From assembly GCA_965215015.1 (NCBI GenBank), contig OZ244042.1, forward strand, positions 3,296,001-3,360,000: 64,000 bases of DNA, read 5' to 3'. A program made the translations under genes and the position numbers. Below, piece after piece: positions 31,192 through 48,088 of the stretch. The notes below the pieces were generated by a model. The model was given only the letters and a program-made list of their open reading frames with translations, ran no database searches and had not been told where the DNA came from. Each line of letters opens with the position of its first letter. Positions within the stretch are counted from its first letter, which is position 1. Origin of the DNA: Candidatus Poribacteria bacterium (GTDB taxonomy: Bacteria; Poribacteria; WGA-4E; PCPOR2b).

Positions 31192-31251
31192 TCCATTTTT
31201 CTCCTCTAGTCTTGAGCATCCCACAGCGGAAAACCGATCAAAGGTACGCAG

Positions 31252-32313
31252 ATGAACGAAATCTACGAACTCACCGTCTGCCCATGGACGCCCGCGCATC
31301 CGCGGAATGATCACCAGCTCATCTTCCCGATGAAAGATGGGTGCCTGATGCTAGTCTGGTGTGAATACTATGCGGATAGCCCTTCACTTGTCGGGTATGT
31401 ACCATACACCCACCGACGGATTGGAGACAACATGCCGTGCCGCATCTCGGCAAAAATATCCGTCGATGTCGGACGGAGTTGGAGTGACGCATTTACCCTG
31501 CAAGATAACGTTGGTAAAATGAACGTGAAACACCCCAACTTGCTCCGACTCCCGTCAAATGAGATTCTATTCACCTATACTGTGCGCAATTCCGTTAGCG
31601 ATTTAAGGATTTATATGAAGTGCTCTCATGATGAATGCGAAACGTGGAGCGACTCTCGTCAAATTTCCTCGCTGCCGGGAATGAATTTCACCAACTGCGA
31701 CCATATCCTTCAACTCAGCTCCGGTAGAATCCTACTCCCCGCACATCACGGCGCCTTCCACGGCAGGGGCGATCACTATCAGGCACTCTGTTACTACTCC
31801 GATGACGATGGTCACACGTGGACGCCGAGCAGGGTAAGGATGGACCTACCGAAACGGGGTGCCGAAGAGCCTTCCATTGTGGAATTGCAAGATGGCTCTC
31901 TCCTTGCAGTCATCAGGAATAGCCTAGGCACAGTTTATAAGTCCCATTCCAACGATAGTGGGGAGTGTTGGACACCCCCTGAATCAACGGGATTAGCGGC
32001 ACCGGCATCTCCACCGTTGTTAAAGCAGATTCCCACTACAGGCGATCTGTTGCTCATCTGGAATCATAATGCTAACCTCGACTACCCCCATCAGGGTGAC
32101 AGAAATCCGTTGACAGCGGCGATTTCCAAAGACGAAGGGCGGACGTGGGAAAATATCAAGGACATCGAAAACCACTTGGGATATGACAGTGCCTATGCCG
32201 CGGTGACCTTCGTTGACGATGAAGCCCTCGTAACCTATTACACTCGATCCATCGCAACCTACGGAGAATCGGTCAAGCTGAAGATCTTCTCGACAGATTG
32301 GTTTTACCAGTAG
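31252..32313 (+). CDS. Sialidase-like BNR-repeat protein
   Basis: Asp boxes SVDVGRSW, SHDECETW, SDDDGHTW, SNDSGECW, SKDEGRTW. Confidence 0.85.
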   Translation: MNEIYELTVCPWTPAHPRNDHQLIFPMKDGCLMLVWCEYYADSPSLVGYVPYTHRRIGDNMPCRISAKISVDVGRSWSDAFTLQDNVGKMNVKHPNLLRLPSNEILFTYTVRNSVSDLRIYMKCSHDECETWSDSRQISSLPGMNFTNCDHILQLSSGRILLPAHHGAFHGRGDHYQALCYYSDDDGHTWTPSRVRMDLPKRGAEEPSIVELQDGSLLAVIRNSLGTVYKSHSNDSGECWTPPESTGLAAPASPPLLKQIPTTGDLLLIWNHNANLDYPHQGDRNPLTAAISKDEGRTWENIKDIENHLGYDSAYAAVTFVDDEALVTYYTRSIATYGESVKLKIFSTDWFYQ

Positions 32314-32478
32314 AAAGGTCACGGGATGCCTCTCAAACCGTTGAATCTCCTCTCGTTGCAACCTTTTATTAGGTCAAGTAGGGTTATTTTGGATAAGTCG
32401 CTCCTACAGTGAGGTATCGGGATTCGGAGATCCCTCCTACAGGAAAACTCAATGCCCTTAACTGTCAAGAATTTAGTC

Positions 32479-32508
32479 TTGACGCGATAACGCGCTTTGG
32501 CGTACAAT
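32479..32508 (+). promoter_or_regulatory. Putative sigma70 promoter
   Basis: TTGACG-18-TACAAT upstream of the TPP enzyme gene. Confidence 0.45.
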
Positions 32509-32655
32509 GCGTCGTTGAACGCCCAATACCGGTTTAGGCTTGCGTTGTTTATCTGAGGACTGTTGATTATGGAAAGTTGTAAAACAAAGTTGTAAAACAA
32601 TGTCGGTTTAATAGAGAAGCTCACAATAGGTTTTGATTGTACAAGGAGATCATAT

Positions 32656-34290
32656 ATGCAAGCTATTGATGCAGTCGCACAAATTTTGAAAACTGAAGGT
32701 GTTGAGAATTTGTTCTGTTTTCCAGCGAACAGTCTTATTGATGCCTGTGCAAAGGTCGGTATCCGTCCGATTATGGCGCGAACAGAACGAACACTGATCA
32801 ATATGGCAGATGGATTCAGCCGTATCTCCAACGGAGACCGTTTGGGTGTTGCGTGTGTCCAATCCGGTCCCGGTAGCGAAAATGCGTTCGGCGGGGTCGC
32901 CCAAGCGTTTTCGGACTCTGTTCCAATTCTGATGCTACCGGGCGGAGTTGCCCGCCGCAGCCACGGCATTCCCACCCATTTCGAGGCAGTACCAAACTAC
33001 GGCGGTATTACGAAATGGGTCGCTCAAGTAAATTTTCCGGATCGAATTCCCGCCATGATGCGCCGCGCCTTTAGTCTACTCCGTACAGGGCATCCGGCAC
33101 CGGTGATGCTTGAGGTGCCAACCGATGTTGCCAGCGAAGATATCGACGACGGCTTCGGCTACAAACCGCCTGAGAAGATTAAACCCGCTGGCAATCCCAG
33201 TGACATTGAAGCATCGGTGCGAGCCCTCCTTGCTGCAGAATCTCCAATCCTTCATGCAGGGCAGGGTGTCCTCTACGCTGACGGGACGGATGAACTGATC
33301 GAATTTGCAGAATTGGTGGGCGTTCCAGTGATGACAACGATGGCCGGCAAGAGTGCCTTCCCTGAAAACCATCCGCTGTCTCTCGGTGCCAGTGGACATA
33401 CCGGCACTGGAATGGTTAAGCATTTTCTAGGGGAAGCGGATCTCGTCTTTGGGCTTGGGTGCAGCCTGTCACAGTCGGTCATGTCCACCCCGATTCCTGA
33501 TGGAAAGGTGTTGATCCATAACTCGATCGATGAGCTAGATATCAATAAAGATTACGCCGCCGATTATGCGATTATCGGCGATGCAAAAATTGTCTTGGGG
33601 CAACTCATTGATGAAGCAAGAAAGCAATTGGGTGGAAGCGGACGCAGTCGTGACGCAGTTGTTGGAGAAATCAAAACCGTGAAGGAGCAGTGGTTAGCGG
33701 AGTGGATGCCAAAACTGACCTCGGATGAAGCTCCTATCAACCCGTATCGTGTTGTTTGGGATCTGATGCAGGCGGTGGATCGGACGCAAACCATTGTCAC
33801 ACATGATTCAGGGAATCCGCGTGATCAGACCCTTCCCTTCTATGAAACGATTACCCCGCACGGTTACATCGGTTGGGGCAAGTCCACGCAATTGGGATAT
33901 GGGCTTGGATTGATTATGGGTGCGAAACTGGCTGCGCCGGAAAAACTGGCTGTCAATATCATGGGGGACGCCGCCTTCGGTATGGCGGGAATGGACTTTG
34001 AAACCGCTGCACGGGAGCGCATCCCCATCCTAACGATTATGTTCAACAACTCGGCACTCGGCGGCTACGAGAAACACATGCCTGTCGCAACCGAACGGTT
34101 CCAGACAAAGTTTCTATCCGGTGATTACGCAAAGGTCGCGGAAGGATTGGGAGGATACAGTGAAAAGGTCGAGAATCCAGCGGACATTATTCCCGCTATC
34201 CAGCGCGCCCAGAAAGAGACACAGGCGGGCAAACCCGCCCTGCTTGAGATTATTACGCGCGAGGAAACCGACTTTTCCATGGGAATTTAG
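32656..34290 (+). CDS. Thiamine pyrophosphate-requiring enzyme
   Basis: GPGSEN, GKSAFPENHPL, GKSTQLGYGLG, GDAAFGM. Confidence 0.9.
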   Translation: MQAIDAVAQILKTEGVENLFCFPANSLIDACAKVGIRPIMARTERTLINMADGFSRISNGDRLGVACVQSGPGSENAFGGVAQAFSDSVPILMLPGGVARRSHGIPTHFEAVPNYGGITKWVAQVNFPDRIPAMMRRAFSLLRTGHPAPVMLEVPTDVASEDIDDGFGYKPPEKIKPAGNPSDIEASVRALLAAESPILHAGQGVLYADGTDELIEFAELVGVPVMTTMAGKSAFPENHPLSLGASGHTGTGMVKHFLGEADLVFGLGCSLSQSVMSTPIPDGKVLIHNSIDELDINKDYAADYAIIGDAKIVLGQLIDEARKQLGGSGRSRDAVVGEIKTVKEQWLAEWMPKLTSDEAPINPYRVVWDLMQAVDRTQTIVTHDSGNPRDQTLPFYETITPHGYIGWGKSTQLGYGLGLIMGAKLAAPEKLAVNIMGDAAFGMAGMDFETAARERIPILTIMFNNSALGGYEKHMPVATERFQTKFLSGDYAKVAEGLGGYSEKVENPADIIPAIQRAQKETQAGKPALLEIITREETDFSMGI

Positions 34291-34366
34291 GTGTAAGACG
34301 TGAGGTGTAAATGGTCAGGGGTTTATTATGGGTTCAATAGTTCGCAATAGAAAGGAGTCACCACTC

Positions 34367-36841
34367 ATGGCAGACTATCAACCGCTCGAGTTGTCACCGT
34401 TATGCAATGCAGGACTTGAAGTTTTAGGCGCAAACGCGGATGCCCCCATCGGCAAACAAGCCTTCCGTGGTCTTCCATTTTTGGTAAACGCGGACGGTTC
34501 AAGATGTTTCATCGCACTTAATGACGCTTCGGGAAATGTCACGATTCCCATCAATCAATCCGCACGCCGCATTATCATCGCACACCGTTTGCTAGAATCT
34601 GATCTGATGGAGGGCGGAGCACTAGGGGAGCCTGTCGCAGATTATGTGTTTCGTCTAGCAGAGGGTGCCGAAATCCGTATTCCCATCCGGGAGCGATTTG
34701 AAATTGCGGATCTCTCCGGTAGCGGTGCGCCATTCCACGCGCTCCCCGATCAGAACGACCATCTGATGCCGCGTCATGAGGGGAAATGGGAGGAGATGGG
34801 GCGACGTCAGACCGAAGTGTCGCGCGGCACAGCCCGTGGCTACTACCTATGGGCGTGGGAGAATCCGCATCCAGACCGCGAGGTCGAATCGCTGGAGATT
34901 ATTCCGAGTGGACCGCATTTTATTATCGCGGGTGTCACGCTTTCGCACGTTGACGAGCATCCTTTCGTCCGACAGGGGAAACGCGAAGCGCGCTTAATCC
35001 TGACCAATCCTGAAGACGCAGAAAAGCCGTTTGACCTTGACGTGGAAGTCGATCGGGGGATAGCGACTTATGTCCATCCGTTGCCTGAAGCGTCATCCGC
35101 CGATTTTGTCAACGATGATTTCGCCGGTTGGGGAGAAGCGCAGAATCCCAAGTCGAGCCCATCCTATGTCGAGGTTGCTGCGGTTCCATCAGCAACGGTG
35201 ACAGTAAAGCAGGGCAAGGAAAAGGTAGGGGAGGTCAAGTGGGGTGATGTTGAGGAGAAAAAGGTGGTCGAAACCCCACGAATGCGTGTGGAACTTTTGG
35301 ACCGTGGACGGAATTGGGTTCACGTCACTATCCTTGATGATGATACGGGCAAACCAGTCCCTTGCCGCGTCCATTTCCGATCACCGGAAGGCGTCCCCTA
35401 TCAACCATACGGACATCACAATCAGGTTAATTCTAATCTCGGCAGTTGGCATATTGACATTGGCGGTGATCTTCGACTCGGACAAATCACCTACGCATAC
35501 ATTGACGGTCGTTGTCAGGGATGGCTACCGCGCGGCGAGGTTATCGTGGATATCGCGCGGGGATTTGAGTATGAACCGCTACGGACACGAGTGAATATCG
35601 AACCGGGTCAACGCGAACTAACTTTGCGCCTCAAACGATGGGTTCACATGAACGCGGATGGCTGGTATAGCGGCGATTCCCACGTGCACTTCCTCTCGAC
35701 ACAGGGCAGTCATACGGAGTCCCAAGGCGAAGACCTCAACATCGTGAACCTGCTCCCATCGCAGTGGGGCAACCTGTTCACAAACACGGAGGACTTCACA
35801 GGCAAGCCGAGTATCTCGCAAGATGGTAATAACATCGTTTATGTCGGTCAGGAGAATCGGCAGCACTTTCTGGGGCATCTCATCCTCTGGGGTCTCAAGG
35901 AGCCGGTGATGCCGTGGTGTAGTGATGGTCCCGGTGAATCTGAGCTCGGTGGAACGCTGGAAATCACGATGAGTGATTGGGCAGATCAGTGTCATGCCCA
36001 GGGCGGCTCGGTCATTATCCCGCACCTCCCGAACCCGAATGGTGAACCTGCGGCACTGATTGCCACCGGTCGCGTGGACGGTGTGGAGATGCTACGTCAT
36101 GCACCGTTCAATCACCTTGAATACTATCGCTACCTCAACTGCGGTTACCGCTTGCCGCTGGTTGGCGGAACGGATAAGATGAGTAGCGATGTACCTGTCG
36201 GTATTTACCGGACCTACGCCTATCTACCTGACCAAGAGTTCACCTACGACAATTGGTGCAAAAGTGTATCCCAGGGACGAACATTCCACAGCGGTGGCCC
36301 TATGATTAACCTCACCGTGGATGGACATAATATCGGTGATACGATGCAGTTGTCAGGGGCTGGTACGGTGGAGGTCGAAGCGTGGGCGGAGAGCATCTTC
36401 CCGATTCATACGCTCGAAATCGTTCAAGCTGGACGTGTCGTTGCCTCGACAGAAGATAGCAAAGGTACACGTCGGTTGGAGTTGAAGGCACAAGTGAAAG
36501 TGGAGGGACACACTTGGATTGCTGCTCGATGTGGTGCTCCTAATTACACCAGCATCCCTCATCACGATGGCTGGGGACGAGGAATATTTGCTCACACTTC
36601 GCCGATTTATATCGCCTGCGGTGGAGAGTGGTGGATGTTTGATAAGGATGCCGCCCAGTATATGCTCACGCTCATTGATGGCAACCTGACCTACATCCGT
36701 CAAACCGCCGCTCGACACGCGCCCGGCACGGCAACCCATCATCACGGTGAAGATAATCACCTTACCTATCTAGAACGTCCCTTCGTCGAAGCCCGCGCAG
36801 CCATTCACCGGCGGATGCATCAATTGGGGATAGCACATTAG
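34367..36841 (+). CDS. CehA/McbA-type (PHP-like) metallohydrolase
   Basis: RGFEY, WYSGDSHVH, GQENR, GH, YRYLNCG, GGTD; RBS aaggag. Confidence 0.78.
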   Translation: MADYQPLELSPLCNAGLEVLGANADAPIGKQAFRGLPFLVNADGSRCFIALNDASGNVTIPINQSARRIIIAHRLLESDLMEGGALGEPVADYVFRLAEGAEIRIPIRERFEIADLSGSGAPFHALPDQNDHLMPRHEGKWEEMGRRQTEVSRGTARGYYLWAWENPHPDREVESLEIIPSGPHFIIAGVTLSHVDEHPFVRQGKREARLILTNPEDAEKPFDLDVEVDRGIATYVHPLPEASSADFVNDDFAGWGEAQNPKSSPSYVEVAAVPSATVTVKQGKEKVGEVKWGDVEEKKVVETPRMRVELLDRGRNWVHVTILDDDTGKPVPCRVHFRSPEGVPYQPYGHHNQVNSNLGSWHIDIGGDLRLGQITYAYIDGRCQGWLPRGEVIVDIARGFEYEPLRTRVNIEPGQRELTLRLKRWVHMNADGWYSGDSHVHFLSTQGSHTESQGEDLNIVNLLPSQWGNLFTNTEDFTGKPSISQDGNNIVYVGQENRQHFLGHLILWGLKEPVMPWCSDGPGESELGGTLEITMSDWADQCHAQGGSVIIPHLPNPNGEPAALIATGRVDGVEMLRHAPFNHLEYYRYLNCGYRLPLVGGTDKMSSDVPVGIYRTYAYLPDQEFTYDNWCKSVSQGRTFHSGGPMINLTVDGHNIGDTMQLSGAGTVEVEAWAESIFPIHTLEIVQAGRVVASTEDSKGTRRLELKAQVKVEGHTWIAARCGAPNYTSIPHHDGWGRGIFAHTSPIYIACGGEWWMFDKDAAQYMLTLIDGNLTYIRQTAARHAPGTATHHHGEDNHLTYLERPFVEARAAIHRRMHQLGIAH

Positions 36842-36871
36842 TGAAACGTGAAAGGTAATGCGTAATACCTC

Positions 36872-37190
36872 CCCGTGAAAAAATCGCCATTGTGGAGGGT
36901 ACGGAAAATGTCTGAATTAGATAATGCGGCTATTTGAATCCGTGTGCTGAATCAGGATTTTCAGGCTGGATGGATAAATAGGATAGAAACGTCAGCATCT
37001 AAGAATCCTGAGAATCGTAGAATCCGGTGAATCCGGATTCTGACAAGTTACACACCCTCCTCCAAAATCATCGCCGCATTCTGTCTGAATCAGGATTTAC
37101 TGGATTTTAGGATTAACAGGATTGACTCTATCCATTGCCATTCACTATCCTGAAAATCCTTCCATCTTGAGAATCCAGATTCTGACAATT
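36872..37190 (+). repeat. Upstream copy of the array unit (MTase-tail fragment plus inverted-repeat element) and a second element
   Basis: atcgccattgtggagggtacggaaaatgtctgaattagataa...gattctgacaag, then tgtctgaatcaggatt...aatccagattctgacaa (37082-37188). Confidence 0.85.
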
Positions 37191-37296
37191 TATACTATTG
37201 ATGCATCTGTAAGCCGATAGCCCTCGCTTAATCCTTGACATGCCTTGATTTAGCTCAAAAGATAGCAGCAAGGATTAAACTCAGGAAAGCCTAAAG

Positions 37297-40200
37297 ATGA
37301 ACGACCCACAACACAAATCTACCATCACAAATGCCCTAAACCGCTTCACCGATGGGGCCCTCGCTGAAAATGCACGAAACCTACTCAACACACTCGGCTA
37401 TCAGAGCGAAAGGACACTAGCCCTTGAATCAAATACCGCCGACGCCTTTATTGCCGCGTATGATCCGCAAGGGCAACTGAATAGCGGTAGGGCACTGACA
37501 GCAGAGTGGACCTCCATTGACCTGCTTTTCCAACTCACAGGCGATGACCTGACGCCCACGGATACAACCCGATGGATTTTCAATCCCAGCCAGACGCAGG
37601 TGGATAACACCATCATCGAATCCTACCTTTTCTTCGCAATCCGCTTGGAAGGCAGCGGTTACAACCGCACCCAACTGTCGCAAATCACCCGCGAAATCAA
37701 CAAGTTGTTCTCGATACCCGCGATGCTGCTCTTTCAACACGGCAGCACGCTTACGCTGTCGATTATCGATCGCCGTTTGGGGGTACGCGATCCATCCCGC
37801 GATGTCCTTGAAAAAGTAACCCTTATCAAGGACATTAATTTCAAAGATCCCTACCGCGCCCACATCGATATCCTATTCGATCTCGCCCTCGAACCGTTGA
37901 ACCAAACGCACGGTGTCCGCAACTTTGTCGAGCTCCATCGCGCTTGGGAAAAGACACTCGACACCGAAGCACTCAACAAGAAATTCTACCGAGAGTTGTT
38001 CGACTGGTTTGAATGGGCGGTTGATGAAGGGGGGTTCCCCACAAACGAAAAGCGTACCTTGAAACCGGAGGAGCACGTCATCCGCTTAATCACGCGACTG
38101 CTGTTCGTCTGGTTTATCAAAGAGAAGGGATTGGTCGCCGATGAACTGTTCAACGAGACGCACGTCGCCCCATTGCTGAAAGACTATGACCGCGACACCG
38201 GCGATTCCTACTACCGGGCGGTGCTGCAGAATCTGTTTTTCGCCACACTGAACACGGAGATAGAGAAGCGTGGGTTTAGCAAAGGGGGCAACCCGGCTCA
38301 TCGCAATTTCTCACGGTATCGCTACAAAGACCAGATAGCCGATCCCGACAAGCTGCTGGGGCTGTTCGCCCAAACCCCATTTATCAACGGTGGCTTATTC
38401 GATTGCCTCGACAGCGAGGAGGCGACACGGGATGGCGGCTACCGGGTGGATTGTTTCTCCGATGTGCATTACAGTCAATTAAGTATTCCTAACCGTCTCT
38501 TCTTCGATGATGCTTACGGCCTGATTCCCCTGCTGAAACGGTACAAGTTTACCGTTGAGGAAAACACACCGATAGAGCAGGAGGTCGCATTGGATCCGGA
38601 GCTACTTGGCAAGGTGTTTGAAAACCTGCTCGCTGCGTATAATCCTGAAACTGGCACAACGGCACGAAAGCAGACCGGTTCCTATTACACCCCCCGCGCC
38701 ATTGTGGACTACATGGTAGAGGAGGCGTTAGTAGCCACGCTTGGAGGACGGGTGGCCCCGACGGACGGTGATTCAAAGTTTTGGGACGAGCGGTTGCGCT
38801 ATCTGTTCGATTATGCGAAAGCGTTCGATGATGCGAGTGAATGGTTCGATAGCCGTGAATCGGACTTGGTAGTGCGGGCAATTTCAGAACTGAAGATACT
38901 TGACCCCGCCGTCGGTTCCGGCGCGTTTCCGATGGGGGTGCTACACAAACTGACGCTTGCCCTACGACGGTTGGACCCGGATAACACCCGATGGGAGACA
39001 TTGCAAAAGGAACGTGCCGCCCAGCGAGCGGCGGATGCGTTTGATACGGCAGATGACCACATACGCCGTGAAGCACTCCTCGAAATCAACGAAACTTTCA
39101 AACGGTACCGCGATTCGGATTTCGGACGGAAGTTGTATCTGATTCAAAACAGCATCTTCGGTGTCGATATTCAGTCAGTGGCGTGCCAAATCGCTAAGCT
39201 CCGCTTTTTCATCTCCCTTGCCATTGAGCAGGAGCCGGATAGGGCCGCAGCTAACTTTGGGATTAAGCCGTTGCCCAATCTGGAGACACGGTTTGTTGCG
39301 GCAAACACGCTCATCGGTCTCGAAGGCGAACGAACCCTGACAAGCCCCAGGGCCAAAGCATTGGAAGGGAAATTGAGTGAGAACCGCGAGCGGCATTTCC
39401 ACGCAACGACACGCTCCCAGAAACTGGCGTGTAAGCGAGCTGACAAGGAATTGCGGCGAGAATTGGCGACGGAATTACGCCATATCGGGATGCCCACCGA
39501 TGATGCGGAAAAAATTGCCCATTGGGACCCCTACGACCAGAACGCCTCTGCTGATTTCTTTGATCCAGAGTGGATGTTTGGGGTCAGAACTGGTTTTGAT
39601 ATTACAATTGGAAATCCACCCTATGTCAGATCAGAGGCGCGGGGACAACGAGCGTTGCGTCAGCAAATAGAAAATAGCAATCAGTATGAAACCCTTTGGG
39701 AGAAATGGGATTTGTATATTCCGTTCATTGAACGCAGCTATAAACTGCTCAAGCCGGCGGGTTTCACAACACTCATCGTCTCAGATGCCTATTGTCACTC
39801 GAAATATGCCCAGAAATCCCAAAACTGGTTTTTGAAAAATAGTCGCATCCTGCAACTTGACTTCTTTGGTAAGATTAAAATCTTCGATGCAGGGGTTCAT
39901 AACGTTACTTATCTGTTTCAAAAAGCAGATGGTAGTTATCAAAAGCCGGAGCGTCGTGTTCATGATCCCGAATTTGGTGTGGTCAATTTATTGCCAACTA
40001 ACGAACAGCGTGAATTAACCTATCGGGTCTTTTTTCCTGAAGATACAAACTGTCAACAGTTTTCAGTGTCGACGCTTGACCTATCAGAAATTTGTTACAT
40101 TAGTTATGGACTGAGGCCAAGTAGCAAGACACAGGATAAAAATAAATTTGTAACCTCTGATGTGGTTTCAGATAAAAAAGATCGACTTCATAGCAAGCCC

Positions 40201-40842
40201 TTTGTCGAAGGAAAGCATTTAGATCTGTGGCTTCCGAGAACAAACCTTTGGATTGAGTGGAATACAAATCGCGCACCTACAAAATTTTACAGTCCAACAT
40301 TCCCAGAAATGTATACAGTGGATGAAAAGATCTTAACTCAACGAAGTCCTGGGCCGGATCCAAAAGTTTGTTATGATAATCAGCATCTTGTTTTCACGCC
40401 CAGCAGTGTTGGATTAATTTTTTGGCATAATTTATCCGGTGTCCGCAATAGATCTATTCAAAAGCAGGCACGCTATAGCGACGAAGTGCGTCACCCAAAT
40501 TTGCCACAGCGGGAAGAACTTGAAGAGACAAGTCGTCGTTTTGCCGTGAAATTCCTGCTTGGTGTGATGAATTCGACTGCCGCCCATAATTTCCTGAAGG
40601 CAAATCGTCGTAGCAATATCCACTTGTACCCTGATGATTGGAAAAAGTTACCTATTCCCGATGTGCCACTTGAGCAACAAGCACCAATTGTTGAACTGGT
40701 CAATCAGATCCTCGACGCTAAACGCCCCGACCCAAACGCCGATGTATCCGAACTTGAAAATGAGATTGATCAGATAGTATATTTGTTATACGGTCTGACC
40801 CGTGAAGAAATCGCTATTGTGGAGTGTGCTGAAAATGTCTGA
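37297..40842 (+). CDS. Large gamma-class N6-adenine DNA methyltransferase with C-terminal target recognition domain (type IIG / Eco57I-like)
   Basis: PFINGGLF, LDPELLGKVFENLL, GSYYTP, LDPAVGSGAF, IGNPPY, C-terminal IDQIVYLLYGLTREEIAIVE. No nuclease motif identified by eye. Confidence 0.92.
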   Translation: MNDPQHKSTITNALNRFTDGALAENARNLLNTLGYQSERTLALESNTADAFIAAYDPQGQLNSGRALTAEWTSIDLLFQLTGDDLTPTDTTRWIFNPSQTQVDNTIIESYLFFAIRLEGSGYNRTQLSQITREINKLFSIPAMLLFQHGSTLTLSIIDRRLGVRDPSRDVLEKVTLIKDINFKDPYRAHIDILFDLALEPLNQTHGVRNFVELHRAWEKTLDTEALNKKFYRELFDWFEWAVDEGGFPTNEKRTLKPEEHVIRLITRLLFVWFIKEKGLVADELFNETHVAPLLKDYDRDTGDSYYRAVLQNLFFATLNTEIEKRGFSKGGNPAHRNFSRYRYKDQIADPDKLLGLFAQTPFINGGLFDCLDSEEATRDGGYRVDCFSDVHYSQLSIPNRLFFDDAYGLIPLLKRYKFTVEENTPIEQEVALDPELLGKVFENLLAAYNPETGTTARKQTGSYYTPRAIVDYMVEEALVATLGGRVAPTDGDSKFWDERLRYLFDYAKAFDDASEWFDSRESDLVVRAISELKILDPAVGSGAFPMGVLHKLTLALRRLDPDNTRWETLQKERAAQRAADAFDTADDHIRREALLEINETFKRYRDSDFGRKLYLIQNSIFGVDIQSVACQIAKLRFFISLAIEQEPDRAAANFGIKPLPNLETRFVAANTLIGLEGERTLTSPRAKALEGKLSENRERHFHATTRSQKLACKRADKELRRELATELRHIGMPTDDAEKIAHWDPYDQNASADFFDPEWMFGVRTGFDITIGNPPYVRSEARGQRALRQQIENSNQYETLWEKWDLYIPFIERSYKLLKPAGFTTLIVSDAYCHSKYAQKSQNWFLKNSRILQLDFFGKIKIFDAGVHNVTYLFQKADGSYQKPERRVHDPEFGVVNLLPTNEQRELTYRVFFPEDTNCQQFSVSTLDLSEICYISYGLRPSSKTQDKNKFVTSDVVSDKKDRLHSKPFVEGKHLDLWLPRTNLWIEWNTNRAPTKFYSPTFPEMYTVDEKILTQRSPGPDPKVCYDNQHLVFTPSSVGLIFWHNLSGVRNRSIQKQARYSDEVRHPNLPQREELEETSRRFAVKFLLGVMNSTAAHNFLKANRRSNIHLYPDDWKKLPIPDVPLEQQAPIVELVNQILDAKRPDPNADVSELENEIDQIVYLLYGLTREEIAIVECAENV

Positions 40843-42294
40843 ATCAGGATTTTCAGGATGGAAGGATTTTCAGGATAAGTATCACCATCGACGGATTTTT
40901 TTTGCCTCGGTAACAACCCGAATTCGGATAGTATACTCATTATACAATTTAACCCCTGAAGAAATTGCTATTGTGGAGGGTGCGGCAAATGGCTGAATTA
41001 GATAAGGTGGCTATTTGAATCCGTGTGCTGAATTAGGGTTTCCAGGCTGGATGGATAAACAGGATAGGGCAGCATCTAAAAATCCTGAGAATCATAGAAT
41101 CAGGTGAATCCAGATTCTGACCATTTATAGGGTCTGCCTCCTGAAGACATCGGTATTGTGGCGGGTGCGGAAAATGTCTGAATCAGGGTTTCCAGGCTGG
41201 ATGGATAAACAGGATAGGGCAGCATCTAAAAATCCTGAGAATCATAGAATCCGGGTTCTGACCATTTATAGGGTCTGCCCTGTGAAGACATCGCGATTGT
41301 GGAGGGAAATGTCTGAATCAGGATTTTCAGGGTGGATGGATAAACAGGCTAGAAACGGCAGCATCTAAAAATCCTGAGAATCGTAGAATCTTGTGAATCC
41401 AGATTCTGACAATTGATACGGTGTCACTCCTGAAGAAATCGGTATTGTGGAGGGCGCGGATTTTTTGAATCTGCGTTAACCTTGAATCTGCGTTAATCTG
41501 CGATTCTGACGCTGCGGGAAATTAAGATTGTGAATGAGACACTAATTGTCTGAATCAAGATTTTCAGGATGGAAGGATAAACAGGATAAGTATCACCATA
41601 GACGGATTTTTTTGCCTCCGTAACACCCCGAATTCGGATAGTATAGTCATTATACAATTTAACCCCTGCAGACATCGCTATTGTGGAGGGTGCGGCAAAT
41701 GGCTGAATTAGGATTTTCAGGATGGAAGGATAAACAGACTAGAAACGGCAGCATCTAAAAATCCTGAGAATCATAGAATCTTGTGAATCCAGATTCTGAC
41801 AATTTATAGGGTCTGCCTCCTGCAGACATCGGTATTGTGGCGGGTGCGGAAAATGCCTGAATCAGGATTTCCAGGCTGGAAGGATAAACAGTATAGAAAC
41901 GGCAGCATCTAAAAATCCTGAGAATCATAGAATCTTGTGAATCCAGATTCTGACAATTGTATACGGTCTGCCTCCTGAAGAAATCGCGATTGTGGAGGGA
42001 AATGTCTGAATCAGGATTTCCAGGATGGATGGATAGACAGTATAGAAACGGCAGCCTCTAAAAATCCTGAGAATCGTAGAATCTTGTGAATCCAGATTCT
42101 GACAATTGATACGGTGTCACTCCTGAAGAAATCGGTATTGTGGAGGGTGCGGCAAATGTCTGGATCAGATAAGGTGGCTATTTGAATCCGTGTGCTGAAT
42201 CAGGCTTTCAGGATGGAGGGATAGACAGTATAGAAACGGCAGCACCTAAGAATCCTGAGAATCATAGAATCTTGTGAATCCAGATTCTGACAAG
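40836..42294 (+). repeat. Degenerate tandem array: 9 units of MTase 3'-end copy plus ~100-bp inverted-repeat element
   Basis: attgtg anchors at 40816 (gene), 40970, 41155, 41296, 41444, 41527, 41680, 41834, 41989, 42137. Element ends tgtctgaatc ... gattctgaca. Confidence 0.92.
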
Positions 42295-42335
42295 AGACAT
42301 ACCAACAGAGTATAAAAATAATGGAGGTTTCGTCC

Positions 42336-43157
42336 ATGACCCAATCGGCATCAAGCAGTTTCGATAAACCGGAGAATTTTAGTTTAACTGAGGGCCAGAT
42401 TACGCAGTTCAAGCTCAACGGCTTCCTCGTGGTCGAAGAGGTCCTATCTCCGGAAGAGGTGGAAATCCTCTCTGCCCATACCGACCTAATAGCGGCCGGT
42501 AAGGCGGAAAATATTCCGGAAACGAGCATTCAACTTGAAGCGGCTTTCCGCGAGGGCTCGAAGCCTGTTACGAATCAGGTCTTATCGGTCCGCAAGCTAT
42601 ACAACCTAGCTGTCTACGACGAGGTGATGTGGACGCATGTCTGTAACCCCAAAATTGTGAACATTATAGCGGCACTATTGGGAACCGATGATATCAAGAT
42701 GTACGGAGATCAGCTATTCATGAAAGCACCGGAGGGAGTCGGCACAGCGCAGCGTTGGCACCAAGACTCTGCCTCATGGCGGGACATCTTCCCGAAAGAT
42801 TTGGTTACAGCATGGACAGCTATTGACCACGCAACGATGGATAACGGGTGCCTGAATTTTGTCCCCGGAACCCACCGCTGGGGCATGATGCGTGGCGAAC
42901 AGTTGGCACCGTTTCTGAAAGACTTAGGAACTGACCAATGGCCGATTATCCCTGTGCCGTTGAGATCGGGCAGCATTAGCTTCCACCACAGTCTCACGCT
43001 GCATCAAAGCAACGCTAACAAATCCAATACACGTCGTCGTGGCTACGCGGTACACTACATGCGCGCGACCTCCCGCCGGGATGAATCGGTGACTGATGCG
43101 CCGAAGATGCCTCCCTTCAAGCAGGTGCGCGGCCGTTCATGGCGGGGGCGCGTGTGA
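42336..43157 (+). CDS. Phytanoyl-CoA dioxygenase (PhyH) family protein
   Basis: WHQD, NGCLNFVPGTH, HHSLTLH, NxSxxRR. Confidence 0.92.
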   Translation: MTQSASSSFDKPENFSLTEGQITQFKLNGFLVVEEVLSPEEVEILSAHTDLIAAGKAENIPETSIQLEAAFREGSKPVTNQVLSVRKLYNLAVYDEVMWTHVCNPKIVNIIAALLGTDDIKMYGDQLFMKAPEGVGTAQRWHQDSASWRDIFPKDLVTAWTAIDHATMDNGCLNFVPGTHRWGMMRGEQLAPFLKDLGTDQWPIIPVPLRSGSISFHHSLTLHQSNANKSNTRRRGYAVHYMRATSRRDESVTDAPKMPPFKQVRGRSWRGRV

Positions 43158-43171
43158 GGACTGAAAACAAA

Positions 43172-44224
43172 ATGTCAAATCGGCAGCGACTCCTAACAAC
43201 TGTTTTTATCTTTTTTCTAAGCTGTATGTTTGTCCGTGAGGTTTCTGTGGCTCTAGCAAACACAGCACGTCTTATCTCCGCAACCCCATTGTCCCAAATC
43301 GCCGTTCAGTTGCGATTTGATCAGACCTTAGACCCACAATCAGCAGAGAATGTGTCAAACTACCGAATCGAGCCAGAGATTGGAATTGAATGGGCAACGC
43401 TCGATTCACGGATGGATATTGTACACCTGTACACCAATCCACTCGAAATTGACAAAAGATATACCCTGAGAATTGAGGGAATAACTGACGCAAATCAGGA
43501 AATCGCTATCACGCTGCCGGAAACGATGGAGATAACCTTCGGTGAAGGTCGAGAGGTGACATTCTCAGGGGTCTTGCGGGATACGACTCTGATCGTCCAT
43601 CCGCAAAAGAAGGAGAAAAACTACAACGCCGGTGGGGAAGGATTTTTGCTGTGTACGCCGATCGGGGGTGTTTTCTTTGTCGCTTTTGACATCATGGAGG
43701 TTTTTGAGGAAATCGGCATCATACGAGCGGCTAGCATCTTAGACGCGTCGATCAGCCTTTATGCAGAATCTGTCGGAAATAATGCTCCCCAGCAGATTAT
43801 TATTCGGCGTGTGTTGCTCCCTTGGCATGAGGGTGCACAAAAATCGCAGCCAGCGAAGGAGAATGAACTCACCTACAACAGTGCGATGCACCAAAATTTC
43901 CCGTGGAATAAACCGCCGGCACAAGCGATGTTGGAAGGTATCAACGGTGAGGCCGCAAGTGATTACAACGGTTCGGAGGATGTCGCATATCGAATCGATG
44001 GACTGGCAGAGATTGGAGCGGCTGAAATGCGATATATATGGAAGGGAATTCTGGTAACAGATGCCGTGCGTTTTTGGTTTACCAACCCCGATTATAGCTA
44101 CGGCTACCTGTTTGCTGTGCGAGATGGCACAGCATCGGTTCGTTTCTCTTCCAAAGAGCATCCCGATGAAACCCTCCGACCCATCCTAACAATCCGGTAT
44201 CGGACACAGGTAGAAAATAACTAA
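43172..44224 (+). CDS. Secreted protein: Ig-like domain plus DNRLRE-like domain
   Basis: Signal peptide, LRFDQTLDPQSAENVSNY, VTDAVRFW...PDYSYG...FSSKE...RPILTI. Confidence 0.65.
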   Translation: MSNRQRLLTTVFIFFLSCMFVREVSVALANTARLISATPLSQIAVQLRFDQTLDPQSAENVSNYRIEPEIGIEWATLDSRMDIVHLYTNPLEIDKRYTLRIEGITDANQEIAITLPETMEITFGEGREVTFSGVLRDTTLIVHPQKKEKNYNAGGEGFLLCTPIGGVFFVAFDIMEVFEEIGIIRAASILDASISLYAESVGNNAPQQIIIRRVLLPWHEGAQKSQPAKENELTYNSAMHQNFPWNKPPAQAMLEGINGEAASDYNGSEDVAYRIDGLAEIGAAEMRYIWKGILVTDAVRFWFTNPDYSYGYLFAVRDGTASVRFSSKEHPDETLRPILTIRYRTQVENN

Positions 44225-44246
44225 TAATGGGCCGGATGAAACATGG

Positions 44247-45566
44247 CTACGTTGTCAAATAAGACCTTATCCGAGCCAATGTCCGCTCGGATGCCCCCAA
44301 ATTTTCTTCGATGACCTGTTTTCCGATTTGTCCCATTTGGATCCGTTTTGCCTCATCAGGGAGCAGCGATGCAAGTGCTTCCATCATCTCTTGAGCATTA
44401 TTAACCAGCTGAGCCGCCCCTCGTGTCTTTAGGATACCTGCCTCATAGGCGTTATGAATCGTGGGACCGAATAGAATCGGTTTTGCCATCGCCGCTGGCT
44501 CCATCACATTGTGAACGCTCCCGTGGAAACTCCCCCCGACAAAAGCAACATCCCCCAACTTATAAAGTTGTGCCAACAAACCAACGGCATCAATCACAAT
44601 GACATCAATTCGGCTCAGATCGATGCCTTCCCGTAATTCTGAAAAACATATCTGTGAAATTCCCAGGCGGTCAAGCTGCGTCTGAATCTCGTCAATCCGT
44701 TCCGCGGTCGGTTCGTGGGGGACGAGGATTAAATGCGGCACGTTATCTTGAATCCTGATGCCATTGGGGGCGTATGATACGTCTTCACATAAGCGGCAGC
44801 AGACTTCAAGCACGACCCGTTCATCCTCCGGGTAAGTGCTTCCTGCAATCAGAATTGGGCGTTGTAAGGTCGATTGTCCCGGGAAGAATTCAGTCGTCCC
44901 ATTGACGGTGATTGCTCGTTGGTAGACGCGATCAAAGCGAGTATCTCCCGTTACCTCGATTTGCGCGGACAGCGGACAAATCATGCGAAACCGTTGTGCA
45001 TCGTCCTCCGAAATCACACAATGCACCGAAATGTATCGATGGACATCTCGGAAAAAGGAACGTGCAAAGAATCCTAACCGTCTGGACTTGGGGTGTAGTG
45101 TTCCCGCGATGAGCGCGACCGGGACCTTGTACTTAGCAGCACACCAAACCAGGTTGGGCCAGATATCAAACTTGGAGAAAACAAGAAGAGATGGCTTAAC
45201 AATTTGCAGGAGACGTTCTGCGTTTCGGGGGGTGTCCAATGGAAGGTAGATAGCAGCGTCGTGGTGGGGATATCTTGCTACGTTGGGGTGGACGGAGGGT
45301 GAGAAGTAAGTTAAGACAATACGCGCCTCATCTTTGAGACTTTCGATGAGCGGCTTGGCTTGCTCAAATTCCCCGACGGAGGTGAAATGAAACCACGCCG
45401 TTTGATTAAGTTCTCGTGCTGAACTCAATTGACTTTCGATTGAGTCGAAAACGCTTCGCCGCCCGGCAATCCCTTCACGAACTTTAGAATTAAACCGAGC
45501 GGCTGTGTAGAACCCAACGACTAACGCGGGGATTACAAGTATATTATAGAGCGTTTTCCAGAGCAT
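44247..45566 (-). CDS. waaA: 3-deoxy-D-manno-octulosonic acid transferase
   Basis: WFHFTSVGEF, YLPLD, GDTRFD, AGST, AFVGGS, HNVMEPA. Confidence 0.92.
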   Translation of the reverse strand: MLWKTLYNILVIPALVVGFYTAARFNSKVREGIAGRRSVFDSIESQLSSARELNQTAWFHFTSVGEFEQAKPLIESLKDEARIVLTYFSPSVHPNVARYPHHDAAIYLPLDTPRNAERLLQIVKPSLLVFSKFDIWPNLVWCAAKYKVPVALIAGTLHPKSRRLGFFARSFFRDVHRYISVHCVISEDDAQRFRMICPLSAQIEVTGDTRFDRVYQRAITVNGTTEFFPGQSTLQRPILIAGSTYPEDERVVLEVCCRLCEDVSYAPNGIRIQDNVPHLILVPHEPTAERIDEIQTQLDRLGISQICFSELREGIDLSRIDVIVIDAVGLLAQLYKLGDVAFVGGSFHGSVHNVMEPAAMAKPILFGPTIHNAYEAGILKTRGAAQLVNNAQEMMEALASLLPDEAKRIQMGQIGKQVIEENLGASERTLARIRSYLTT

Positions 45567-45697
45567 GGTATCCTAAAGCATAATGCGTCGCGCTATCAAC
45601 CTTGAGCTTAGACATCTATGTGAAACTCCCTGTGAGAGAAAGATGAACTTAGCGTGCGTAAGACGTAAAGTCTTTCGTGTTGTATGATACGGTATGT

Positions 45698-46024
45698 TTA
45701 TAGCGCAGAGAGGATTTTGTTTTTGAGTGTATCTTTTGGATGTGCACCGACAATCTGCTCTGCCACGTCTCCTTCCTTAATGACTAGAAGCGTTGGGATG
45801 CTACGAATGCCATACTTCATTGCAGTCTCTCGGTTGTCATCCACATTCAGCTTGCCTACCTTGAATTTGCCGACATACTCATCAGCAAGTTGTTCAAGAG
45901 TCGGGGCAATCATTTTGCACGGGCCGCACCATTCCGCCCAAAAATCGACAACAATTGGCGTCTCGGAATTCAAAACAGTTTCTTCAAAGTTGGCATCGGT
46001 GATTTCTAAAACATTCTCAGTCAT
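45698..46024 (-). CDS. trxA: Thioredoxin
   Basis: DFWAEWCGPCK, SIPT. Confidence 0.97.
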   Translation of the reverse strand: MTENVLEITDANFEETVLNSETPIVVDFWAEWCGPCKMIAPTLEQLADEYVGKFKVGKLNVDDNRETAMKYGIRSIPTLLVIKEGDVAEQIVGAHPKDTLKNKILSAL

Positions 46025-46120
46025 GAGTGATCTCCTTATACGTGAAGTATCAGAATATTTTCATTACATTTTACATTATAATATGATACCCTACAAAAGT
46101 CAGCGTGTCAATCAATGATC

Positions 46121-46273
46121 GCTCATGTTAAGAAATCGTGCAACAGTCCCCGAGTTTTTTGTTGAAAACTCGGGGGCAAATACCAATGGTGTTGGACTCT
46201 GGTGTTTGGTGAATTGAGCCAAAACTGTTGCGCGATGTTCCGGGTATCTTTGTACTTTCTTTTTATATGAGCC
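46121..46273. mobile_element. MITE-like family 3 element, copy 2
   Basis: gctcatgttaagaaatcgtgcaa ... ttgtactttctttttatatgagcc; similar along its whole length to 59813-59967. Confidence 0.75.
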
Positions 46274-46281
46274 TCAATGGT

Positions 46282-48088
46282 TTACGCTTCGTCCGGCATT
46301 GTCCGCAAATCGTCCACCGTCTTTTTGAGATTTTCAGCGGTTTCTTTTTTTAGGATAAAAACCGTATCCGGTGCATTCTGCAAGCGTCCGTAGTGGTGCT
46401 CATCATCAGCGAGTTTCCCGATTTCTAGTAGGTGCTCCGTTCGATCCTTCAGCGTGACAGCCAGTTGCATCTCCGGCACATCAAGCCCTGTTGTTGTTAT
46501 GGGGGGCGACACGGCTAAAAACACTTCGACTGTCAATTGGTTTATCTGATGGATGATGCTGCTGACCGCTCCGTTTTTCGCGTCCTCGTGTACCGGATGC
46601 GTGAGTCGCCAATTCGTTCCCTGCTTTTGACAGGTCAGATTGACTCCACCATACTTCAAGACAAATTTGACAGCGGCATCGCTGTCGAAATCAAGAATCT
46701 GTTTATCCCGTAGTTCTGCGACTCCCACTCTAACAAGATCGAGGAGGTTTTTCTTGACCAAAAAGACTGGTTCAGCGTTTTGGGCTTTGACATAAATGTT
46801 ATCCCCTTTCATCTTCCCCACAAGCAGGACAGCAGGTTCGGCGTCGGGCACCATGAACGCAGACTCAATCGAAGGCGAATCCAAACCATAAGGTTGAAGA
46901 TTCTTCGGTTGATCGTCTACGAATGCCACTGCCTTCAGCGCATCCACGCCAAATAGGAGGTCATCAACTGCCTCTTCATCTGCTTTCAGGGTAACTGGTG
47001 TTGTAATCTCCCATTCACCGTCCATATTTTTTTGACACACAATCTTGCTATCCCCTTGACGGATTGCAAACCGATGGGTGGCTGTGCGCTGGAAGTCAAT
47101 AACCCGCTTATCGCGGAGATCAAAAATGGTTTTGTTCAACTTCGTGTAGATCTCTTTATTGACCGCATAAACGGCATGGTGGTCGGAACGTGCAACGTAA
47201 ATCCGCCCGGGTGTTCCCGCATCGCTGCCAATTTGTAACTCTTGTATTGAGCCATCAGCCGTGGATTGGAATGCGACGGTAATCCTCGGTTGAGCAAGTC
47301 CGTAACTGGCAGGATTGTACTCACCATCCGCTTCAAAGAGGACCACCCTCAAGCTGCCAATTGCGGATACGATATCTTCAACTGCTCTAGGATCGGCTTT
47401 TGCCTTTACCGGTTGAATTATTTTCCATTCACCCGGTTCTCCCGTTGCATCGGGATTTGAAGCGACCTGCCTCTCGCAATGAATATCGGGTTGCCCGGCA
47501 ACCTGAAGATGGAGTGCTGCAACTTCAGCCGGTAAAAATTTGAAAACGCTCCGATCTCGAAAATCTGAAGGCGACTTTGTAAAATCATCAAGCGCACTCG
47601 ATTCAATCAGAAAGATATGGGATTCCGATTGCTCCTTTGTGTAGACAGAATAGTTGACGGTCTTATCACCGATAAGGAAGGTTTTGGCTGGATCTTTTCC
47701 CTCTGTCCACAATTCGATCCGGATATTGGGTGGCTGTAGTCCGTATTGCGCCAAATCTTCCGCTTCGATTGTCTGTTTGACCTGTTTTTCGAGTAGATCT
47801 TGCAGCATCTCATCAATCTTGTGTGGATTAGCCTCAGCAGTAAGGGGGGGCCGTCAATTGCCATATACTGTCAGCGTTTTTTGCCAATGTCAAAGATCGA
47901 TACGATTCGTCCTTGAACGACAAGCGAATCCGCCGAATCTCGTCTGTACTGAGTGCATAAACCTCGCGAATCTTCTGGGCATCTATCTTCGACTGCTCTG
48001 TATCGGGAGATGGACGCCCGAAAAAGAAATATACGCCGCCGAGTAGGATAAATATTGCAAGAATAATCAGTGTCGTTTTGAAATTCAT
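46282..48088 (-). pseudogene. Multi-repeat DUF4340 protein with a frameshift in a C7 run
   Basis: Repeated W..P...AD...YGL..P units. Removing one base of G7 at 47844-47850 gives WQLTAPLTAEANPHKIDEMLQ, joining the two ORFs. RBS ggaggtg. Confidence 0.82.

Follow-up and report, generated by a model that had tools for sequence, protein, structure and literature searches.

Restriction-modification specificity determines which foreign DNA a cell accepts, and what is known of its diversification comes largely from a few pathogens. A window of 64,000 nt from the genome of a Candidatus Poribacteria bacterium (contig OZ244042.1), the whole stretch of DNA analysed here, carries a methyltransferase gene that stands among copies of its own 3' end, and raised the question of how such an array arises and whether it is connected with the exchange of recognition specificities. 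The original prediction held that gene tail plus element acts as a recombination or landing site for serial exchange of specificity modules, the array recording past alleles. The features of the locus are collected in Table 1.

Table 1. Features of the methyltransferase locus, numbered from the first base of the window.
Positions	Strand	Feature	Basis or remark
36868..36920	+	Upstream truncated tail copy (..PREKIAIVEGTENV, then stop); left edge of the 5.4-kb block	
36909..37045	+	Module copy with a ~36-nt mini-insertion in its left end	
37046..37187	+	35-nt spacer and "family-2" module	
37188..37246	+	"Terminal" segment, which comes after the last module in several arrays elsewhere	7 genome copies
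37247..37296	+	5' leader of the gene	50 nt 100% identical to the leader in front of the paralogue at genome 3797372-3800935
37297..40842	+	1181-aa Eco57I-type gamma-class N6-adenine methyltransferase, type IIG-like	1 of 8 paralogues
37297..39624	+	Conserved N-terminal module of the gene, itself mosaic	Paralogue DNA comparison
39613..39624	+	NPPY codons	Breakpoint on the 5' side of the variable module
39625..40640	+	Variable module: target-recognition domain with the remainder of the methylase domain	Unique in genome
40786..40842	+	Resident tail (LYGLTREEIAIVECAENV, then stop)	Stop TGA within the first bases of the module
40836..40996	+	Left end of the module alone, ~50-nt spacer, 22-codon remnant of the other tail type (IVYSLYNLTPEEIAIVEGAANG, then stop)	
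40997..42303	+	Remaining array: tails 41138, 41279, 41427, 41497, 41663, 41817, 41972, 42120	Module after each

The methyltransferase gene and its recognition module

The gene product matched the Eco57I methylase domain of Pfam (PF07669) at residues 618-863 (E 1.1e-28), was called REase_MTase_IIG by PADLOC (E 6.8e-57), and has its NPPY catalytic motif at aa 773-776; its PDB sequence matches were M.BseCI, CamA, and M.TaqI. A Pfam scan of the 1181-aa protein for an N-terminal endonuclease domain found no nuclease domain, with MmeI_hel remaining sub-threshold at residues 261-368 (E 0.031, 15.5 bits versus a cut-off of 27). Identity with BREX PglX was rejected, as BREX_1_MTaseX scored 50 bits versus a cut-off of 500 and the neighbours were a hydrolase and a PhyH dioxygenase instead of BREX genes. 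Residues 1080-1172 matched the C-terminal part of TIGR02987. The C-terminal motif had been expected to be conserved behind a variable recognition domain, and distant paralogues at 24-28% identity indeed kept the YxLTxEEIxxIE helix, with the endings ..YQLYDLTDEEIALIE.. and ..HYGLTDEELDFII...

Comparison with the paralogues was then made at the DNA level. The N-terminal module was 89-91% identical to the 4 closest paralogues over the aligned spans, p3497 being alignable only from gene nt ~660 on (91%) and p3374/p3378 from the same point at 74%. Homology stopped at gene nt 2328, in the NPPY codons, and returned 150-210 nt ahead of the stop. The variable module in between had no second copy in the genome and was 61-78% identical to genes of another lineage in other species. 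At the protein level, residues 1-780 matched one lineage (71-96%) and residues 781-1140 another (63-83% versus 13-35%), and the window-by-window identity profile switched lineage at aa 780, at the NPPY motif. One G018 gene was 78% identical in the recognition domain and 61% in the N-terminal part; the N-terminal part was matched best (84%) by a G018 gene without a recognition-domain match. The gene is thus chimeric and combines two lineages, its recognition part having been swapped in from another lineage, and the specificity-module exchange among these methylase genes that had been postulated is real.

Tail copies, module, and their distribution

A repeat search found 10 copies of a 49-nt tail, starting at 36872, 40799 (the gene's own), 40953, 41138, 41279, 41427, 41663, 41817, 41972, and 42120. 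The spacings from the gene's own copy onward were 154, 185, 141, 148, 236, 154, 155, and 148 nt, the gap of 236 being divided 83+153 by a decayed tail copy at 41497-41546 that reads LTLREIKIVNETLIV and a stop. Nine copies of the gene's last 13-22 codons lie downstream, each beside a ~104-bp module, with one more upstream, exactly the units listed in the original prediction, the 83-bp gap included; the tail peptides reported with them were also recovered by direct reading. Tandem Repeats Finder gave a period of 154 at 41665-42168 (3.3 copies, 88% matches). Frame and stop were retained in every tail copy, and the remnants carried 4-22 codons only, recognition-domain sequence being absent. The compound unit directly behind the gene was seen again at 41547-41711. 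The first remnant (IVYSLYNLTPEE...) is of a tail type different from the resident tail, and its best match outside the genome was a tail in G018, that of the gene which also matched the N-terminal part of the present gene best.

The module (TGTCTGAATCAGGATT...AATCCAGATTCTGACA) is present around the gene in 7 copies of 98 nt with 69-86% identity. It is built from two inverted, AGGAT-rich ends of ~42 nt with one AGGAT motif every 8-9 nt, and it starts within the stop-codon region throughout the whole gene family; the TGA of the present gene lies inside TGTCTGAATC, in the left end of the element as had been read before. The description of the element as palindromic was too strong: only about 16 bases at its termini (TGTC...GACA) are inverted, mismatches included. 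A strong hairpin was rejected, single-strand folding being weak (z -1.1 to -2.0) and the two ends not paired in the fold. The first ~22 nt form a near-dyad. The family-2 right end (37146-37191) and the module end behind the gene (40832-40877) form an inverted repeat of 46 nt at 89%. The 35-nt family-2 spacer was identical at 5 loci and therefore travels with the module instead of being made at each target. Related elements of 180-209 nt have near-perfect inverted ends of 22 nt, and no long flanking repeats were seen at solitary elements related to the module.

At least 4 types of tail-module unit were found in the genome, with tail lengths of about 11, 27, 50, and 66 nt. Each type has a single fixed junction in this genome and therefore arose once and was then copied. 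In all units of the 50-nt type, ATT(T/GT)ATAC after the module end is joined to TTATAC inside the tail, and the bases of this junction are also found before the terminal segment. The fixed junctions speak against the array as a record of serial alleles, as do the local homogenisation of three arrays, the existence of arrays without genes, and the shortness of the remnants. A diversity-generating retroelement was rejected because the tail-copy differences were not restricted to adenines and no reverse transcriptase was found among 11 large ORFs within 28886-47808.

We further investigated the distribution of the units in the genome. Of the 8 type IIG-like paralogues, 6 have a tail+module array behind them, so the proposed check for such arrays at other type IIG genes came out in favour of the prediction, and arrays without any adjoining gene also exist. 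A 21-nt tail pattern (up to 3 mismatches) occurred 53 times versus 0 for the reversed control, which excludes a chance origin of the tail copies; 15 congeners had 0-9 copies. The module is present in 89 copies at 19 loci, single-copy at 3 loci only and none clearly free-standing, and tail copies of >=30 nt number 50 at 9 loci. Unit number and order vary freely between loci. In a nearest-neighbour comparison of 52 units, the nearest unit lay within the same array (87-97%) for 7/7 units at 0.73 Mb, 3/4 at 0.377 Mb, and 6/9 at 3.796 Mb. The arrays at 3.336, 3.803, and 5.413 Mb have common colinear blocks of 400-830 nt at 85-90%, and multi-unit blocks are common to arrays behind different paralogues. 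The left edges of arrays lie about 0, 11, 17, 20, and 45 nt before the module, inside the tail and with no fixed core, and different arrays with the left end in common also stand behind other, distantly related Eco57I-type genes here. In other species, tail-like sequence directly followed the first module right end behind the gene at 8/10 loci (p<=0.05, 500 shuffles), and 6 other right-end-like matches at those loci gave p 0.19-0.98. A decayed second tail is the usual finding behind the module in other species, and tail duplication beside the module is therefore old and recurrent.

The 5.4-kb block is an insertion that is missing from 19/19 congeners. The genes flanking it are adjacent in all 19, with gaps of 26-460 nt, and are 5483 nt apart here. 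The block meets host DNA at GCGTAATAC/CTCCCC on the left, and its right edge is the module end ..GATTCTGACA at 42294. No clean target duplication was found at the edges, and about 50 nt of host DNA had been replaced. Insertion 3' of a TATAC-like target (host ..TAATAC at the left joint) was set aside, this being a single case with three tail bases missing. Short-read contigs of 4 public runs (2 studies) extended into the block from the left flank to 36957 (36910 in run X1) and from the right flank from 42264. No contig of these runs bridged the array; the contigs broke inside it with many alternative joints, which are not assignable to a particular locus. The unique variable module was recovered from the runs as a single contig of 1272-1276 nt with 0 differences, run X1 included, and the flanks in run X1 differed from this genome at 16/611 and 7/537 bases. 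Metagenome scans for the 29-nt left junction and for 32 nt of the module left end each returned 0 contigs.

Origin of the arrays

The array is a satellite-like tandem repeat whose unit is the last ~50 nt of the gene plus the ~104-bp module: the units run head-to-tail at a period of 154, their junction is constant, and in three arrays of the genome the units are locally homogenised. The reading that we prefer, and to which we give an even chance of being correct, is a module-linked duplication of the tail, the products of which multiplied through unequal recombination and passed between paralogues that recombine. Short-homology duplication would have created each unit type, and unequal homologous recombination or slippage would have expanded it. 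Recombination between paralogues, by gene conversion or by pop-out and re-entry at the conserved tail, may then have spread both arrays and recognition modules. In the main, the arrays would be by-products, through which the 3' homology arm common to the paralogues becomes longer.

Some observations run against this preferred reading. With at least 4 unit types, the tail must have been duplicated beside the module several times, and such separate duplications hint at a mechanism tied to the module instead of random duplication. Moreover, the module lies between two tails with a second module absent, unlike the outcome of a simple tandem duplication, and it stands upstream of an Xer-like subfamily that is expanded in this genome only.

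The main rival to module-linked duplication is site-specific recombination, which we regard as possible although not probable. The module ends would be sites for a trans-acting tyrosine recombinase, and a circle with one site and a tail copy, or with a whole methylase gene, would integrate at the site in the stop-codon region; the tail would be restored and the older tail pushed downstream, so that arrays accrete and genes move as cassettes. The tail-module-tail layout in other species, the intact frame and stop of all tail copies, the inverted module ends that bracket the gene (89% complementary over 46 nt), and the near-dyad at the module start are consistent with such sites. The genome has 11 tyrosine-recombinase genes, and the module core stands just upstream, in the same orientation, of 5 of them, which form one family (52-94% identity). 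Four Xer-like copies have the module left end just upstream, the distance to the start codon being about 150 nt in those that were measured; the fifth, diverged copy has family-2 modules upstream. The core was absent at 28 homologous loci in 21 other genomes, and the expansion of this Xer-like subfamily is confined to this genome. That this very subfamily recombines at the module ends, with type IIG genes and tail stubs as the cassettes of an undescribed integron- or pdif-like system, is a more doubtful proposal. Against cassettes, no recombinase was found near any array or among the 11 large ORFs of 28886-47808, the part of the window to which the confirmation of the original statement that no recombinase is visible applies, and the link between recombinase and module amounts to one lineage-specific expansion that could equally be a passenger duplicated beside the module. 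The left edges varying within the tail without a fixed crossover core, the common junction of units of one type instead of independent origins, and the insertion with host DNA replaced and no clean target duplication also argue against it, and the local homogeneity of three arrays requires tandem amplification anyway.

Selection of the arrays for a function of their own is unlikely, whether this were, for instance, to yield plentiful non-coding RNA, to stack terminators or insulators, or to bind proteins. The recurrent AGGAT motifs of the module ends and the common left end of different arrays behind distantly related Eco57I-type genes could be read this way, and a highly transcribed array with the Tery_0080 3' part in Trichodesmium is a precedent (PMC4143802). 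No RNA run contained the stretch, and Rfam over 36000-43000 at E<=0.1 gave no match, by which a known RNA family was rejected. A promoter or terminator stack was likewise rejected, with promoter-like (9 versus 8.2 expected) and terminator-like sites (6 versus 5.8) not enriched. The weak folding of the module and the freedom of unit number and order to differ between loci point in the same direction. Slighter still is the chance that the module is a DDE-type MITE, whose long variable target duplications or repeated hits on the tail would duplicate tail parts. Its inverted termini, the related elements with near-perfect ends, and the flanking tail copies of differing length would suit a MITE, and long variable direct repeats are known from the IS1634/IS1549 family. 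No autonomous element with matching ends was found; the 12 DDE_Tnp_1 matches all lay away from the arrays, the module with its middle part was essentially never solitary, and neither the missing long repeats at solitary relatives nor the constant family-2 spacer fits. The only hits of a search for an autonomous transposon, with inverted ends spaced 0.6-12 kb, were arrays, methylase genes, and one other region, and no transposase was enclosed; that other region has an IS1595 transposase and an integrase, with a matching pair of ends absent. An IS200-type Y1 transposase was rejected, its 2 genome matches lying far from the arrays. A mis-assembled or inflated array, finally, would account for the broken contigs and alternative joints and is scarcely credible: the units differ from one another by 3-40%, which collapsed or duplicated reads would not, flank contigs of 4 runs from 2 studies anchor the block at both edges, and the same architecture recurs at 9 tail-bearing loci of a single-contig genome.

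Known systems and meaning

In the accretion of integrative and cis-mobilisable elements at gene 3' ends, and in integron and pdif arrays, copies of the 3' end separate successive inserts. The present locus resembles these systems in its repeated gene 3' ends, the inverted site-like modules bracketing the gene, and a candidate tyrosine recombinase family. It differs in that the inserts are only about 100 bp, cargo-free, and without an adjacent integrase, the edges lack a fixed core, and units of one type have a single origin. Bacterial MITE arrays (Correia, RUP, and similar) likewise have a small inverted-repeat element at a stop codon that has grown into a tandem array. Unlike these, the present module hardly ever stands alone, its inverted ends are weak, target duplication and a known transposase are both lacking, and a piece of gene tail always comes with it. 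Literature searches returned nothing matching for MITE tandem arrays at stop codons, and only general sponge-microbiome papers for restriction-modification repeats in Poribacteria.

Domain movement in restriction-modification genes is reportedly a related published system. Target-recognition domains move between non-orthologous methyltransferase genes (Furuta & Kobayashi 2012; commentary PMC3575425). The likeness lies in a module that has conserved methylase-motif codons as its borders and that paralogues at different loci exchange through recombination in the conserved flanks, the 5' flank here being the NPPY motif. The 3' flank here is different, consisting of the extreme gene tail with up to 1.5 kb of tail+module repeats, and the 8 paralogues belong to an uncultured sponge symbiont, not to Helicobacter pylori with its type III and type I genes. 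In Trichodesmium erythraeum, a tandem array holds the duplicated 3' part of Tery_0080 and foreign sequence, and its authors suggested the involvement of mobile elements (PMC4143802). Head-to-tail units with the 3' part of a neighbouring gene are common to both cases. The Tery_0080 units measure 736-973 bp in one highly transcribed array (PMC4143802), versus ~154 bp at many loci here, and only the present arrays sit behind a multi-copy restriction-modification gene.

Together, the findings show eight recombining paralogues in an uncultured sponge symbiont, with a recognition module that has sharp borders and can be swapped, and with a burst of tail repeats peculiar to the lineage. If the cassette proposal were true, the system would insert at the stop-codon region and rebuild the tail every time, and the symbiont could move and re-sort restriction specificities by cassettes. 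If the repeats or the inverted-end module promote exchange, or serve a dedicated recombinase, they would represent a new shuffling route for defence specificities and also a new class of array-forming repeat. Otherwise, the locus is a clear natural example of a stop-codon repeat dragging coding sequence into a satellite.

Chimeric structure of the methyltransferase gene

The product of the methyltransferase gene contains an Eco57I methylase domain (PF07669, E 1.1e-28), matched the PADLOC type IIG restriction-methylase models strongly, and fell well short of the BREX PglX cut-offs. Among solved structures, M.BseCI, CamA, and M.TaqI were nearest in sequence. No Pfam nuclease domain was found, only a sub-threshold match to the MmeI spacer domain. 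Eight paralogues were found by tblastn in the host genome, a single contig of 5.94 Mb.

When the gene was compared with its seven paralogues at the DNA level, the five closest were 89-91% identical and the other two 74%. Identity began at the start codon for four of the five closest, and ~660 nt into the gene for p3497 (one paralogue) and the two at 74%. In all seven it stopped at gene nt 2328, where the NPPY codons (aa 773-776) end, was absent for ~1 kb, and returned over the last 150-210 nt (82-89%). The N-terminal 2.3 kb was itself mosaic, with p3497 at 42-72% identity in the first 800 nt and 81-95% beyond, and two haplotype groups were present among paralogues in gene segment 1600-2000. 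Five genomic copies of the N-terminal part were 89-92% identical, and no match in another species exceeded 84%. Genes in three other species (G018, G013, and G006) matched the gene's variable module (the rest of the methylase domain plus the target-recognition domain) at 78%, 76%, and 74% identity, respectively, and its N-terminal part at only 61%, 73%, and 64%. The best N-terminal match (84%) was to a second G018 gene, which showed no match to the variable module; profiled in 60-residue windows, its identity was 71-96% to residue 780 and then 13-35%. The first G018 gene gave 18-55% for residues 1-240 and 63-83% for residues 781-1140. The window's copy is a chimera, and recombination takes place within its gene family. 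The predicted exchange of methyltransferase specificity modules was thus supported by the break at NPPY, the return of paralogue identity near the tail, and the two-lineage chimera. Recognition domains have thus moved between methylase genes that are not orthologous, a process that passages of PMC3575425 describe for Helicobacter pylori; in this gene the breakpoint lies at the catalytic motif.

The block as an insertion

The hydrolase-like gene (end 36841) and the PhyH gene (start 42321) were adjacent in 19 of 19 other congeneric species (gaps of 26-460 nt) and 5483 nt apart in the window, and the ~5.4-kb block between them is an insertion. Alignment to empty sites placed its left edge inside a tail copy, between GCGTAATAC and CTCCCCGTG, and its right edge at a module end, between GATTCTGACA and AGAGAC, with loss of ~50 nt of ancestral spacer and no target duplication at the edges. 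Short-read contigs from four runs of two studies entered the block from both flanks, the array not being bridged, and the gene's unique middle formed one contig in the assemblies of four runs. In one public run (X1), the recognition-module contig (window 39466-40737) was identical (0/1276 differences) and flank contigs differed at 16/611 and 7/537 bases, which may point to a strain mixture or to the module having recently swept or been transferred.

Tail and module arrays in the window and the genome

Repeat search and direct reading confirmed nine extra copies of the tail (the gene's last 13-22 codons) downstream, each beside a ~104-bp module, and an additional such unit upstream of the gene at 36872. 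The gene's stop codon lies within the module's first bases (TGTCTGAATC). Although it had been described as palindromic, the module has weakly inverted ends (~16 nt with mismatches) and folds weakly (z -1.1 to -2.0). No Rfam family matched.

As predicted, other methyltransferase genes are also followed by tail and module units, namely six of the eight paralogues, five with arrays of 3-10 further units and one with a single unit. Gene-less arrays occur at 0.73 Mb and 3.67 Mb, and others sit upstream of genes or of a common terminal segment. By BLAST, the module had 89 copies at 19 loci, single at only three, and is therefore an array-former and not a scattered MITE; tail copies of at least 30 nt numbered 50 at nine loci. 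A 21-nt tail pattern occurred 53 times in this genome versus 0-9 times in each of 15 congeners, and its reversed control 0 times in this genome.

Several further elements were observed. Within the left end of some modules is a ~36-nt mini-insertion (core GGCTATTTGAATCCGTG), flanked on both sides by an 8-9-nt direct repeat; the core also matches 12 isolated genomic sites, so the mini-insertion may itself be a tiny mobile element. Arrays of a second module family have a period of ~143 nt (1.70 Mb holds 14 units) and a constant 35-nt spacer that looks like a decayed short methylase tail. Other tandem arrays (11x100 nt, 3.7x228 nt, and 5x144 nt) border distantly related Eco57I-type genes (24-28% identity). 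These arrays share the module-end motif in either orientation, and one of them takes in the 5' portion of a small ORF downstream. Terminal-segment variants closing arrays carry TTGACA-N18-TATACT, a near-consensus promoter-like pair; the window's copy is shortened and fused to the gene's leader.

Coordinates of the gene, repeats, and associated elements
Feature	Coordinates	Strand	Remark
Methyltransferase gene	window 37297-40842	+	1181 residues
First downstream remnant	window 40930-40996
Mini-insertions	window 36919-36953, 41000-41034, 42157-42199
Terminal segment, window copy	window 37188-37246
Terminal segment variants with promoter-like pair	genome 3500770, 3795798, 5418705
Second-module-family loci	genome 1699441-1701422, 1753241-1754130, 1502765-1503101, 51216-51413; window 37046-37187
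Arrays flanking distant Eco57I-type genes	genome 3401992-3402994, 4392952-4394040, 4098089-4098667
Xer-like recombinase family members	genome 2380293-2381291, 6759-7730, 2864648-2865331, 3848134-3848721, 50254-51039

Origin of the arrays

The first downstream remnant (IVYSLYNLTPEEIAIVEGAANG and stop) is of a tail type unlike the resident IVYLLYGLTREE, and since its best match outside the genome was the tail of the G018 gene closest to the gene's N-terminal part (88%, 89 nt), it may genuinely be the scar left when modules were swapped. Counting against this, its compound unit is found with an identical junction in two copies at the window locus, two at 3.80 Mb, and six at 5.41 Mb, indicating a single origin and then copying. 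Wherever it occurs, the common 50-nt unit shows a single junction, with ATT(T/GT)ATAC after the module end joined to TTATAC within the tail, and these bases also stand before the terminal segment that follows the last module; such a junction is what short-homology duplication of tail plus module would leave. Among 52 units compared, nearest relatives lay within the same array (87-97%) for 7/7 units at 0.73 Mb, 3/4 at 0.377 Mb, and 6/9 at 3.796 Mb. At 3.336, 3.803, and 5.413 Mb the closest unit was often in another array, and these arrays share colinear multi-unit blocks (400-830 nt, 85-90%) about as divergent as the genes themselves. Homogeneity within arrays and blocks common to several of them mark the array as a tandem repeat whose units are exchanged between loci, and not as a log in order of time. 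The original prediction that the array records past alleles was therefore mostly unsupported, given the fixed junctions, copied units, locally similar arrays, and inter-locus blocks. Tail plus module is still a candidate landing site for such exchange, as originally proposed.

The main rival to amplification by recombination is a site-specific cassette system, which we consider unlikely. Pointing to a module-linked mechanism, family genes of other species likewise end in IVEGAENV with the stop within TGTCTGAATC, and behind them lies either a lone left end or a related module carrying CGGATT repeats. At 8 of 10 loci from seven species, tail-like sequence came immediately after the first right end of a module beyond the gene (p<=0.05 versus 500 shuffles; four loci at p<=0.006), and six other right-end-like matches in the same loci gave p 0.19-0.98. 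Tail pieces trapped between modules were ~11, 27, 50, and 66 nt, an old short copy included. The module core also lies just upstream, in the same orientation, of 5 of the genome's 11 tyrosine-recombinase genes, at ~150 nt from the start codon in the copies measured, and these five form one Xer-like family (52-94% identity). No module core was found upstream of homologous recombinase genes at 28 loci in 21 other genomes. The expanded recombinase and expanded arrays are one lineage-specific coincidence, suggestive of a mechanism tied to the module and not proof of it, and the recombinase could be a passenger copied beside a module. The family with the module's left end upstream was expanded in the window's genome only, and two copies look truncated.

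Other features were seen at methylase-gene loci of relatives. At L035, L033, and L006 (genomes G006, G018, and G011), a decayed tail copy after the module ends in AAGGAGTAAAAATGTCAAATCAA, the ribosome-binding site and start of the next gene, and this start resembles the opening bases of the module (AAAATGTCTGAATCA). At L037 (G001:C1:4582100-4582930), a 38-nt insertion inside the tail of a family gene introduces a stop codon. ORFs downstream of the methylase genes at L003, L005, and L010 begin like TIR-domain proteins (KVFISY or KVFITYAHK), which suggests possible defence islands.

Our literature search found no paper on tail and module arrays behind a restriction-modification gene family; a partial precedent is a Trichodesmium array that, in passages of PMC4143802, contains the 3' part of a gene. 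The best-supported account, about evenly balanced in our judgement, is that the tail and module unit was amplified and spread by recombination among recombining paralogues.
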